Assembly (NCBI RefSeq): GCF_044324875.1
Contig: NZ_CP172185.1
Length of the DNA stretch: 64,000 nt
Strand: one strand, 5' to 3'
Source: Escherichia coli
Lineage (GTDB): Bacteria; Pseudomonadota; Gammaproteobacteria; Enterobacterales; Enterobacteriaceae
Shown piece after piece: positions 3,639 to 54,080 of the stretch (the first letter of the stretch is position 1; each line of letters begins with the position of its first letter). Below the pieces are notes generated by a model that worked only from the letters and a program-made list of their open reading frames with translations, had not been told where the DNA came from and did no database searches. The position numbers and the translations under genes are program-made.

Positions 3639-4232
3639 ATGGAAAAATACCTGCACCTGTTAAGTCGGGGAGATAAAATTGGCCTGACATTGATTCGTCT
3701 GAGTATTGCGATTGTTTTTATGTGGATTGGGTTATTAAAGTTTGTCCCTTACGAGGCAGACAGCATTACACCATTCGTCGCAAACAGTCCACTAATGTCG
3801 TTCTTTTATGAACACCCGGAAGACTATAAACAGTATCTGACTCACGAAGGCGAATACAAACCAGAAGCAAGGGCATGGCAAACGGCCAATAATACCTATG
3901 GTTTTTCCAACGGTCTTGGCGTCGTGGAGGTGATTATTGCTCTGCTGGTTTTGGCTAATCCTGTCAATCGCTGGTTAGGTTTATTGGGAGGGCTGATGGC
4001 ATTTACCACACCGTTGGTAACACTCTCATTTTTAATCACCACCCCGGAGGCATGGGTACCCGCATTGGGTGACGCTCATCATGGTTTCCCTTATTTATCC
4101 GGTGCTGGTCGCCTGGTATTGAAAGATACTCTGATGCTGGCAGGTGCTGTCATGATAATGGCAGATTCGGCGCGGGAAATTCTTAAACAACGCAGTAATG
4201 AATCCAGTTCAACGTTAAAAACTGAATATTGA
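3639..4232 (+). CDS. rclC: Inner-membrane protein RclC (197 aa)
   Basis: ORF 3630..4232, start trimmed to MEKYLHLL; hydrophobic segments. Confidence 0.8.
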   Translation: MEKYLHLLSRGDKIGLTLIRLSIAIVFMWIGLLKFVPYEADSITPFVANSPLMSFFYEHPEDYKQYLTHEGEYKPEARAWQTANNTYGFSNGLGVVEVIIALLVLANPVNRWLGLLGGLMAFTTPLVTLSFLITTPEAWVPALGDAHHGFPYLSGAGRLVLKDTLMLAGAVMIMADSAREILKQRSNESSSTLKTEY

Positions 4233-4265
4233 TAATCCGAACACTGTCTGTTGTTCACTTTTGCA

Positions 4266-48943: not shown

Positions 48944-50401
48944 GTGTCTGAACTGTCTCAATTATCTCCACAGCCGCTGTGGGATATTTTTGCCAAAATT
49001 TGTTCTATTCCTCACCCGTCCTATCATGAAGAGCAACTCGCTGAATACATTGTTGGTTGGGCAAAAGAGAAAGGTTTCCATGTCGAACGCGATCAGGTAG
49101 GTAATATCCTGATTCGTAAACCTGCTACCGCAGGTATGGAAAATCGTAAACCGGTCGTCTTGCAGGCCCACCTCGATATGGTGCCGCAGAAAAATAACGA
49201 CACCGTGCATGACTTCACTAAAGATCCTATCCAGCCTTATATTGATGGCGAATGGGTTAAAGCGCGCGGCACCACGCTGGGTGCGGATAACGGCATTGGT
49301 ATGGCGTCTGCGCTGGCGGTTCTGGCTGACGAAAACGTGGTTCACGGCCCGCTGGAAGTGCTGCTGACCATGACCGAAGAAGCCGGTATGGATGGTGCTT
49401 TTGGCTTACAGAGCAACTGGTTGCAGGCTGATATTCTGATTAACACCGACTCCGAAGAGGAAGGTGAAATCTACATGGGTTGCGCGGGGGGTATCGACTT
49501 CACCTCCAACCTGCATTTAGATCGTGAAGCAGTTCCAGCTGGTTTTGAAACCTTCAAGTTAACCTTAAAAGGTCTGAAAGGCGGTCACTCCGGCGGTGAA
49601 ATCCACGTTGGCCTGGGTAATGCCAACAAACTGCTGGTGCGCTTCCTGGCGGGTCATGCGGAAGAGCTGGACCTGCGCCTTATCGATTTCAACGGTGGCA
49701 CACTGCGTAACGCCATCCCGCGTGAAGCCTTTGCGACGATTGCTGTCGCAGCTGATAAAGTCGACGCACTGAAATCTCTGGTGAATACCTATCAGGAGAT
49801 CCTGAAAAACGAGCTGGCAGAGAAAGAGAAAAATCTGGCATTGCTGCTGGACTCTGTTGCGAACGATAAAGCTGCCCTGATTGCGAAATCTCGCGATACC
49901 TTTATTCGTCTGCTGAACGCTACCCCGAACGGTGTGATCCGCAACTCCGACGTGGCAAAAGGTGTGGTCGAAACCTCCCTGAACGTCGGTGTGGTGACCA
50001 TGACTGACAATAACGTAGAAATTCACTGCCTGATCCGTTCTCTGATCGACAGCGGTAAAGACTACGTGGTGAGCATGCTGGATTCGCTGGGTAAACTGGC
50101 AGGCGCGAAAACCGAAGCGAAAGGCGCATATCCTGGCTGGCAGCCAGACGCTAATTCTCCGGTGATGCATCTGGTACGTGAAACCTATCAGCGTCTGTTC
50201 AACAAGACGCCGAACATCCAGATTATCCACGCGGGCCTGGAATGTGGTCTGTTTAAAAAACCGTATCCGGAAATGGACATGGTTTCTATCGGGCCAACCA
50301 TCACCGGTCCACACTCTCCGGATGAGCAAGTTCACATCGAAAGCGTAGGTCATTACTGGACACTACTGACTGAACTGCTGAAAGAAATTCCGGCGAAGTA
50401 A
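48944..50401 (+). CDS. pepD: Cytosol non-specific dipeptidase
   Basis: 485-aa M20-family peptidase; hairpin gtccacgcctgcgggcgtggac at 50412..50433. Confidence 0.95.
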   Translation: MSELSQLSPQPLWDIFAKICSIPHPSYHEEQLAEYIVGWAKEKGFHVERDQVGNILIRKPATAGMENRKPVVLQAHLDMVPQKNNDTVHDFTKDPIQPYIDGEWVKARGTTLGADNGIGMASALAVLADENVVHGPLEVLLTMTEEAGMDGAFGLQSNWLQADILINTDSEEEGEIYMGCAGGIDFTSNLHLDREAVPAGFETFKLTLKGLKGGHSGGEIHVGLGNANKLLVRFLAGHAEELDLRLIDFNGGTLRNAIPREAFATIAVAADKVDALKSLVNTYQEILKNELAEKEKNLALLLDSVANDKAALIAKSRDTFIRLLNATPNGVIRNSDVAKGVVETSLNVGVVTMTDNNVEIHCLIRSLIDSGKDYVVSMLDSLGKLAGAKTEAKGAYPGWQPDANSPVMHLVRETYQRLFNKTPNIQIIHAGLECGLFKKPYPEMDMVSIGPTITGPHSPDEQVHIESVGHYWTLLTELLKEIPAK

Positions 50402-50448
50402 TTACAATAATGTCCACGCCTGCGGGCGTGGACTACTGTTTGAAGCCA

Positions 50449-50691
50449 ATGGCTATCTATATCGAAATAACAAAACATTATGAAACTCATGAAAAGGTCG
50501 CATATTTATATAGCTGCGACCATATTTCATGGGGAGAATTTCTGATCACCAAAGAAGGTTTTGCGCTGGAATCCGTGAAAGAACTTAAGGGTGAAAAGCA
50601 GAAATTTTATATGTTCAGAGCCTGGGGCAAAGTCAGGAGAGCATACTTAACCACGGGAGAATTTCCCCAGGAAACATGTTACGCCGCTTAA
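50449..50691 (+). CDS. Hypothetical 80-aa protein (start uncertain; track ORF starts at 50410 inside the pepD terminator hairpin)
   Basis: ORF only; no motif recognised; convergent with the DUF457 gene. Confidence 0.3.
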   Translation: MAIYIEITKHYETHEKVAYLYSCDHISWGEFLITKEGFALESVKELKGEKQKFYMFRAWGKVRRAYLTTGEFPQETCYAA

Positions 50692-50707
50692 AGTCAGAAT
50701 AATTTTT

Positions 50708-51217
50708 TCATGCATTTACCATTTTGGCATTACGCCTGCACCACATGGCAATGGCGGCAACCACTAATGCCAGTTCCAGTAAAAACGACCAGTGTAATAA
50801 AAAATTGAGCCACCACGGATGATGTACCGCCGTAATATGAAAGAATGCAAACGGTTGGTTAACGAAAGGCATCAGCCACCAGATATCACCGACCAGCGTA
50901 TCGAGTAATAAATGCGCGATACTATTCAGGCAAAACACCACGCCCAGCCACGCCGGAAGTTTATTCTTCGCAATTCCTGCCCAGACTAATGTCGCCGCCA
51001 GCAGAGCAAACCATAATAATGGCCAATGAGACGGGTAAAGATGATGATGTCGTTGCCCGTTATCAACCAGATAGCACCAAAAAAGATCAAAATCGGGCGC
51101 AACGGCCCCAAGTAAGCCAATAACCATCGCCCAGCGCGCATGACGAGCAATCAGTGGCAAGCGTTTCATTAAAGTACAAGTTATTAAATAACCAGCCGGA
51201 AGATGACCGATAAACAT
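50708..51217 (-). CDS. DUF457 (YdjM/YbcI-like) membrane-bound metal-dependent hydrolase family protein
   Basis: Starts MFIGHLPAGYLI; His-rich hydrophobic ORF; 61 bp downstream of prfH on the same strand. Confidence 0.55.
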   Translation of the reverse strand: MFIGHLPAGYLITCTLMKRLPLIARHARWAMVIGLLGAVAPDFDLFWCYLVDNGQRHHHLYPSHWPLLWFALLAATLVWAGIAKNKLPAWLGVVFCLNSIAHLLLDTLVGDIWWLMPFVNQPFAFFHITAVHHPWWLNFLLHWSFLLELALVVAAIAMWCRRNAKMVNA

Positions 51218-51278
51218 GACTATTCCTTTCGTTTTTCCCGCCGCTTTCATATAGAAAACGGCGGGAGACATTCCTCAA

Positions 51279-51893
51279 TTACACAGCGACAAAAGCCATC
51301 CCTGTAAACGTTCGTCGCGGGTTGCCACGTTCAATCTGGTGATGGAACATTCGCCGCTGCGATTTCAGCGCCGCGCTATTTTCCTGTTGCTGTTGCTCCA
51401 GCTTCCAGGCAATCAGCAATCGCGCCAGCCGTTTGTTGGCATGTTGGCTGCGCTCTGACTGAACCTTCACGCTAATCCCGGATGCCAGATGCGTGGCGCG
51501 TACCGCCGAGTCGGTTTTATTGACATGTTGACCGCCCGGCCCCGACGAACGCAGCGTCTCATAACGGATTGCATCCGATTGTTCCTGCTCATCAGCAGTA
51601 AAACGCCCAATGCCCAGAAACCAGTTTTTGCGCCCATGATGAGGCCGATACGGACTCGGACAAATCCACTGGATAGTGCCGCACCAACTTTCGCTTAATG
51701 CCCATGCGTTATCGCCATCCAGAGAAATCAGCGCTGAACGCAACGTGTCAGAGTAGCGACCCGTTTCTGTTTCCAGCACCGTTATCGCGACGTCTTGTCG
51801 GGTAGCTTCTTTAATCAACCTGTCCAGCGCCTTTTTCACTGCGAGGCAACATTCTTCCGGCCCCTGCGCTGAGGAGAGTTGTAGCAAGATCAT
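51279..51893 (-). CDS. prfH: Peptide chain release factor homolog PrfH, full length (204 aa)
   Basis: GGQ motif ([16 protein letters not shown]); ATG overlaps rtcB2 stop (ATGA). Confidence 0.85.
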
Positions 51894-53672: not shown

Positions 53673-53684
53673 AATATAAATTCA

Positions 53685-54080
53685 AAAACGCATGCGAAAC
53701 GCTTCTGCCATTTTCCCAATTTTATGCATTTGGTTGTTATCTCGAGCCAGTTTATGAGGTTCAGGTTTCAGAATGGCAATGAGCAACCATGCTTGCTCAT
53801 CAAACGCACCCTGACAATATACCAAATGCGCTTCGTCATTCGTTCTGCTGAATTGGCGCAACTGTGGCGGAAATGGATTATTCTAATTTGCCAGATGAAT
53901 ATGAGCAACTCGCTCAAATTTGATTAATGGCCAGGTAAACGAGTCGTCGTAGAGTGCATCGCGACCAAATATATCTGGCAAAACACCGTCACGCTTATAG
54001 GAAATAAAATCCGCCGTTAACGCTTCAAGTTCCTCTGCTGTAAGTTGCAGGCGAATGAGTTTTGTTTTGAATACCCGCAT
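53685..54080 (-). pseudogene. yafO: YafO toxin gene with in-frame amber codon at codon 66 (65 + 66 sense codons either side of TAG)
   Basis: MRVFKTKLIRLQ...IHLAN then TAG at 53883..53885, then same-frame NNPFPPQL...AEAFRMRF*; total 132 codons. Confidence 0.7.

Follow-up and report, generated by a model that had tools for sequence, protein, structure and literature searches.

A small orphan gene beside pepD in Escherichia is probably an immunity gene of a polymorphic toxin system

The small gene downstream of pepD

The window, the 64-kb stretch of Escherichia coli DNA analysed here, carries the gene order frsA, gpt, pepD, a small open reading frame (ORF), a YdjM-like gene, prfH, rtcB, yafP, yafO, yafN and dinB. 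The initial annotation had placed the small ORF directly after pepD and convergent with a DUF457 gene, and the coordinates bear this out. The long form of the ORF starts 8 nt past the pepD stop and ends 16 nt short of the stop of the convergent gene, whose product matches PF04307 (YdjM, formerly DUF457) with an E-value of 1.2e-8. The locus comprises the following features.

48944 to 50401, + strand: pepD, the gene 5' of the small ORF
50405 to 51271, no strand: variable segment of ~870 bp with the small gene and the YdjM-like gene, delimited by alignment with E. coli W
50410 to 50691, + strand: long form of the window ORF, 93 aa, with an internal ATG at 50449
50410 to 50448, + strand: N-terminal extension of 13 codons in the 93-aa form given by PGAP; its ATG at 50410 is unconserved and it overlaps the hairpin
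50412 to 50433, no strand: GC-rich hairpin of 9 bp with a 4-nt loop just 3' of the pepD stop, with a weak T-tract
50449 to 50691, + strand: conserved small gene of 80 codons (80 aa), member of an unnamed family of putative immunity proteins, orphan here
50708 to 51217 (or to 51271), − strand: convergent gene for a YdjM-like membrane protein

Strain 118UI is 100% identical over the stretch, and its PGAP annotation lists the 93-aa form as 'hypothetical protein' WP_000106438.1. Comparison between lineages favors the shorter form, as the initial annotation had done. ATG 50449 is conserved, and the Salmonella counterpart is a TTG behind an AGGAG Shine-Dalgarno sequence. By contrast, L015 lacks ATG 50410, L017 has it displaced by one codon, and in E. 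albertii (L009) and in L012 a different gene occupies its position. The small proteins of E. albertii and Salmonella are both 80 aa long. The hairpin overlaps the codons after ATG 50410, has a folding energy of −19.7 kcal/mol (z −3.7 compared with shuffled sequences) and is kept in sequence in all compared Escherichia lineages, including those with an extra gene 3' of it. It is likely the terminator of pepD. Judged from these comparisons, the 13-codon extension is probably not translated as part of the protein.

Signals for expression are sparse around the gene. No sigma-70-like promoter was found within 50200-51400, the Shine-Dalgarno sequence of the window gene is weak (GAAG), and the stable hairpin lies between pepD and the gene, where only 47 nt separate the pepD stop from ATG 50449. 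The region has no credible Rfam match, and we dropped a reading as an RNA gene on this ground. Literature searches found nothing for WP_000106438, nor for the combination of pepD, prfH and rtcB.

Whether the ORF encodes a real protein or arose by chance had been left open in the initial annotation. Comparison across relatives decides for the former and against the latter. The reading frame is kept in every Escherichia lineage sampled as well as in Salmonella, and non-synonymous change is suppressed, with dN/dS values of 0.11-0.24 between Escherichia lineages (Nei-Gojobori) and Fisher tests for pN < pS reaching p-values down to 1e-8. Synonymous divergence rises to ~0.67 with the frame intact throughout. 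The small ORF is a real gene under purifying selection and not a chance ORF.

Frameshifted variants of the small protein occur in some assemblies (P0005, P0007, P0010 and P0018). Together with P0021 and P0022, they come from public sequencing-run assemblies and carry a frameshift near the C-terminus, running into the YdjM region of the opposite strand; the P0010 cluster stands for 39 sequences. These clusters represent either decayed copies in some lineages or assembly errors. Between the window and L012 (50449-50688 vs 4001-4240), dS is 0.55 at the small gene, counted over ~47 synonymous sites, compared with 0.09 at pepD. The raised value hints at old alleles or at recombination at this spot.

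A variable segment shared across Escherichia

The segment is kept in only 327-329 of 5,426 complete E. coli genomes (~6%). As the alignment with E. coli W shows, other E. coli have, in place of the ~870 bp, an unrelated intergenic stretch of ~50 nt that separates pepD from prfH. The right boundary of the segment falls inside the last prfH codons (window 51272-51290, − strand); the C-terminus of PrfH reads ...GMAFVAV in carriers and ...GMAFIEG in non-carriers such as E. coli W. Beyond E. coli, the slot of pepD, small ORF and YdjM-like gene is common to E. albertii, E. whittamii and cryptic Escherichia clades, and the order pepD, small gene, YdjM-like gene (− strand), prfH and rtcB is also found in Escherichia sp. 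TW09231-like and other cryptic lineages. Homologues detected by a close-homologue search were confined to Escherichia and, at 56% identity, Salmonella enterica. We infer from this distribution that the segment is ancestral to the genus and was lost in most E. coli. Given its low GC content (~40% vs ~52% in the flanks), the small gene was probably acquired horizontally before Escherichia diversified. Its absence from ~94% of E. coli, together with the frameshifted variants, indicates that it is dispensable.

An extra ORF of 171 aa lies between pepD and the small gene in E. albertii (L009 7450-7965) and some other Escherichia lineages (L012 3458-3973) and is absent from the window. It combines a soluble N-terminal half with a hydrophobic, membrane-like C-terminal half, occurs in Escherichia only and has no family match; the label 'HemY' given by one source looks like a mis-annotation. 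The window sequence just 5' of ATG 50449 resembles the sequence just 5' of the start of the 171-aa ORF, which would fit a deletion from one start codon to the other. We considered this ORF as the missing toxin of the small gene and rejected it, as it is unrelated to the HEYFES toxin domain described below, membrane-like and found only in Escherichia.

The YdjM-like gene, named 'metal-dependent hydrolase' by PGAP, has dN/dS values of 0.13-0.26, and in Escherichia the small gene always adjoins it. In another assembly, queE and queD flank a second orphan of this enterobacterial subfamily, with no YdjM nearby. The small-protein family is therefore independent of the YdjM-like neighbor, and a link to YdjM was dropped on the evidence of co-occurrence. 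The YdjM-like gene is a co-resident of the variable segment. In E. coli c1-17 (L002 6359-8206) it is interrupted by the IS4-like element ISVsa5, and the small ORF is intact.

The initial annotation had also set the small ORF alongside the rtcB2-prfH block. We find no tie between them, as each occurs without the other: rtcB-prfH is present without the small gene in E. coli W and ~94% of E. coli, and in L015 and L016 the small gene is present with prfH truncated and rtcB absent. A role as accessory gene of the rtcB2-prfH module was accordingly rejected.

Further along the window, an internal stop divides the toxin gene yafO (53682-54080, − strand) into ORFs of 65 aa (N-terminal part) and 59 aa (C-terminal part), beside an intact yafN antitoxin gene. 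PGAP treats yafO as a pseudogene in 118UI, whose sequence exactly matches the window where compared. After dinB, 118UI carries the lateral-flagellar (Flag-2) genes lafU and motA (L001 11205-12411), corresponding by identity to the window from 55500 onward. In K-12 the Flag-2 locus is degraded.

The small-protein family and its putative toxin partner

The ORF had been called an orphan, a term that does not hold in the sense of lacking relatives. An exhaustive profile search recovered 61 representatives of 50%-identity clusters, nearly all of 77-84 aa, which places the protein in a widespread family of ~80 aa that is paired with a toxin domain. The 55 aligned members are 77-84 aa long and match over their whole length; extensions or insertions occur in a few of the remaining ones. 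They follow the pattern MA(I/V)Y(I/V).I.K..E....V.Y.(F/Y)......G........R(A)........G.(F/Y)P(D/E).TC(W/Y)A(S/A), and the window protein keeps all invariant or near-invariant residues (M1, A2, K9, E12, Y19, G29 and P73). It matches the family profile with an E-value of 1e-26 and the Salmonella protein P0020 at 56% identity (E 4e-20). Homologues are recognizable at the protein level down to about 25-30% identity and come from several phyla.

The earlier description of the ORF as having no recognisable motif holds for Pfam, NCBIfam, PADLOC, PHROGs and PDB sequences. Scans of the ORF, the 55 family members, the toxin domain and the 171-aa neighbor gave no meaningful match in Pfam, NCBIfam, PHROGs or PADLOC, no family member matches a Pfam family consistently, and PDB sequence searches with the family profile and the toxin yielded nothing credible. 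The model of the putative immunity protein is of moderate confidence (pLDDT 73) and its fold matches are generic. The small protein is best read as a cytoplasmic, signal-less member of an unnamed family of predicted immunity proteins.

This prediction comes from the genes that precede the family members outside Escherichia. The Salmonella homologue (56% identity) begins 10 nt behind the gene of a 1,683-aa T6SS-type Rhs protein, with a DUF4123 gene just upstream. The Rhs core ends in PTQWVDPLGL, an instance of the PxxxxDPxGL boundary described for Rhs proteins (PMC3150448), directly before a C-terminal domain of 141 aa. Other Salmonella isolates carry the homologue after 167-aa orphan Rhs C-terminal fragments in typical orphan arrays. 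One locus of the toxin-immunity pair is an orphan array downstream of an Rhs gene that also contains Tox-ART-HYD1, Imm26-like, SUKH and Tox-MPTase4 cassettes. On a metagenomic contig, a 578-aa non-Rhs protein ends in the 141-aa domain, and a family member of 40% identity begins 3 nt later.

The partner domain follows the pattern H...FDP...W.R...HEYFES.FE...Y...H...R, with H, FDP, W, R, D, HEYFES, FE, Y, H and R as invariants, and is referred to here as the HEYFES domain. The (T/S)G(G/A)R junction that typically marks the end of pre-toxin regions is retained in the short copies. Structure prediction gave a confident, all-helical model (pLDDT 88). The domain has no match in Pfam or NCBIfam and no solved structural relative in PDB sequence and fold searches, so its activity could be new; from the model, it could possibly represent a new enzymatic toxin class.

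A search with the putative toxin domain alone recovered short and long proteins of unrelated origin, among them P0082, P0083 and P0085, as well as a plasmid-borne PT-TG protein of Priestia and a haemagglutinin-repeat protein of Rhizobium. With the exception of Rhizobium, the next downstream ORF at each of these loci is a family member (hmmsearch E 1e-15 to 1e-27), and control ORFs neighboring toxin-immunity loci gave no score against the family profile. Starting from the immunity alignment, we obtained two distant loci, one in a Cyclobacteriaceae MAG and one in a Thiotrichaceae MAG, where the ORF preceding the family member carries the toxin domain at its end (E ~1e-40). One of the two toxins stands behind a PT-TG domain, and the other locus has an overlapping stop and start. 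A locus search with the close immunity alignment returned only 5 loci. Searches begun from either partner thus recover the other.

Overall, a toxin followed by a co-oriented family member with a gap of 0-73 nt is found at eight independent loci (Salmonella L004-L008, L020/21, L023-25, L026, L027/28, Priestia L029, Cyclobacteriaceae L034 and Thiotrichaceae L035). The carriers are Rhs proteins, PT-TG proteins and proteins without a recognized delivery domain, from Bacillota, Bacteroidota and Gammaproteobacteria. A toxin domain with a small protein downstream of it, recurring on unrelated scaffolds, is the signature of a polymorphic toxin-immunity pair. Since it follows a conserved boundary on unrelated scaffolds, the HEYFES domain appears to be a genuine polymorphic-toxin tip, and the window gene scores as a significant homologue of putative immunity proteins with toxin partners.

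Two further cases stand apart. On plasmid pPR19E02 of Rhizobium hidalgonense, a distant copy of the toxin (36% identity; L030 2501-2872) forms the end of a haemagglutinin-repeat (CdiA-like) protein. This copy is not followed by an immunity-family member, the gene annotated next is on the opposite strand, and a different or unrecognized protein may serve as its immunity partner. In a second Salmonella Rhs allele (L006 1-4669), the C-terminal residues ~1409-1511 match the HEYFES profile weakly (E 5e-6); judging from this match, the tip may be a divergent form of the toxin that has another gene behind it.

Probable orphan immunity and its alternatives

Within the 64-kb window, tblastn with nine toxin domains returned nothing below E 0.1, and the window contains no PxxxxDPxGL motif; the window gene does not stand next to a toxin of its own. 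When Salmonella DNA encoding toxin and immunity protein was compared with the 5,426 complete E. coli genomes by blastn, only the immunity part matched, in 310 genomes. This DNA-level search is sensitive to ~65-70% identity, and the protein-level toxin search of the source DNA covered the window. Among the toxin homologues found in a search of 5.8 billion proteins, none is from Escherichia. As far as these searches reach, the cognate toxin is absent from E. coli.

Taken together, the gene at 50449 to 50691 is probably an orphan immunity gene of a polymorphic toxin system. Products of the family are expected, on the model of RhsI and CdiI, to bind and block a toxin, and the partner of the immunity protein would be the HEYFES domain. 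According to this explanation, the gene would have been acquired horizontally before the genus diversified, then inherited at the pepD locus and lost from most E. coli together with the YdjM-like gene. Its most likely role would be to neutralize a related toxin injected by a competitor, for example a Salmonella strain. Expression in the window strain would probably rely on read-through from pepD or on an unrecognized promoter. Binding and neutralization, expression in this strain and any protective benefit are inferred. Immunity is usually allele-specific. With 56% identity between the window protein and the Salmonella immunity protein that has its partner beside it, cross-protection is therefore uncertain.

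A location at one chromosomal site across the genus, dN/dS values as low as those of the small gene, the lack of a detectable Escherichia toxin and the constant adjacency to the YdjM-like gene would also fit a former immunity gene that now serves Escherichia in some other way, for instance by inhibiting or partnering one of the cell's own proteins. We consider this rather unlikely. The gene was lost in ~94% of E. coli with no obvious replacement, the queE-queD orphan of the same subfamily does without YdjM, and the small gene and the YdjM-like gene converge, which speaks against their co-transcription. The purifying selection itself does not discriminate, as a working orphan immunity gene would equally show it.

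Improbable, too, is a decaying relic, the neutral remainder of an old toxin-immunity cassette after deletion of the toxin. Neutrality predicts a dN/dS near 1 and stop codons over a synonymous divergence of 0.35-0.67, in contrast to the ~0.12 seen here (p to 1e-8) and to an 80-codon frame that is intact, with all family-invariant residues, in every species sampled. This substitution pattern largely refutes the relic, even if the absence of the gene from most E. coli, the frameshifted alleles in some assemblies, the IS element in the neighboring gene of strain c1-17 and the weak translation and transcription signals in the window are what a relic would leave.

The gene might instead encode the antitoxin of an intracellular type II toxin-antitoxin pair, since stand-alone toxin ORFs (P0082 and P0083) lie near BrnT/BrnA or UPF0175/DUF3368 modules and integrases, and since Salmonella Rhs elements are reported to behave like toxin-antitoxin modules (PMC7043789). 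We hold this to be very improbable: delivery proteins of the Rhs, PT-TG and haemagglutinin-repeat kinds carry the toxin domain as their C-terminal tip, the short copies look like orphan C-terminal fragments because of the junction they retain, and no toxin adjoins the window gene. Finally, an origin by chance or a non-coding nature, for instance as an RNA or as an extended pepD 3' UTR, for which the lack of a database domain, the AT-rich region and the hairpin at the 5' end could be cited, is already refuted by the ~80-aa end-to-end homologues at about 25-30% identity in several phyla, the synonymous excess and the lack of a credible Rfam match.

For the preferred reading, an orphan immunity gene, the main interest lies in the fact that both partners are uncharacterized and that the orphan is maintained across a whole genus. 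For a 'hypothetical protein' present in ~6% of E. coli and in several further Escherichia species, this reading makes a prediction that can be tested: carriers are expected to withstand one particular toxin, delivered by Rhs, PT-TG or possibly CDI, that some Salmonella strains use. The gene offers a clean natural experiment, being an orphan in single copy whose site is fixed and whose presence varies within E. coli, and the locus lends itself to the question of why, and for how long, immunity genes are retained in the absence of their toxin. We give a rather low probability to the bolder statement that the orphan is kept under purifying selection genus-wide with no cognate toxin anywhere in Escherichia. 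This could mean a new enzymatic toxin class, or an orphan that is either a long-lived 'vaccination' against a toxin of gut communities or a protein recruited to a new cellular task.

Comparison with known systems

The window gene resembles the RhsI and CdiI immunity genes (Poole et al. 2011, PMC3150448) in encoding a small protein without a signal, with relatives that lie on the same strand 0-73 nt after a toxin tip. As in Rhs-CT/RhsI and CdiA-CT/CdiI systems, the same cassette recurs on different scaffolds and also forms orphan CT/immunity modules that lie behind a full Rhs gene, and its GC content is low relative to the host. Unlike RhsI and CdiI, the protein has no sequence similarity or confident fold similarity to described immunity families (no match to Pfam Imm, SUKH or CdiI), and the window copy stands without an adjacent toxin or Rhs remnant, outside any rhs or cdi locus.

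The cognate toxin is comparable to the PT-TG (PF14449) proteins with unannotated tips, as it ends PT-TG proteins in Priestia and in the Cyclobacteriaceae MAG. A table in a 2025 survey of PT-TG proteins (Pandoomain preprint, 10.1101/2025.10.01.679605) gives PT-TG as the sole domain recognized in the Priestia protein WP_193399813.1, and the survey makes no mention of the Rhs copies in Enterobacteriaceae or of the Escherichia orphan. The toxin-immunity pair is in no domain database, and the toxin may be among the 24 new toxin groups of the survey.

Documented precedents exist for orphan immunity genes, which can be both expressed and protective (PMC3150448; PMC12483513). Examples cited in PMC12483513 are orphan immunity alleles of T6SS effectors in Vibrio and Salmonella and the acquired interbacterial defence genes of Bacteroidales. 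Like these, the window gene is a homologue kept without its cognate effector; it varies between strains and, by analogy, would plausibly protect against the toxins of competitors. Described orphans mostly reside in effector/immunity arrays or on mobile elements, whereas the window gene is a single gene at the fixed housekeeping locus pepD-prfH, inherited vertically across the whole genus.
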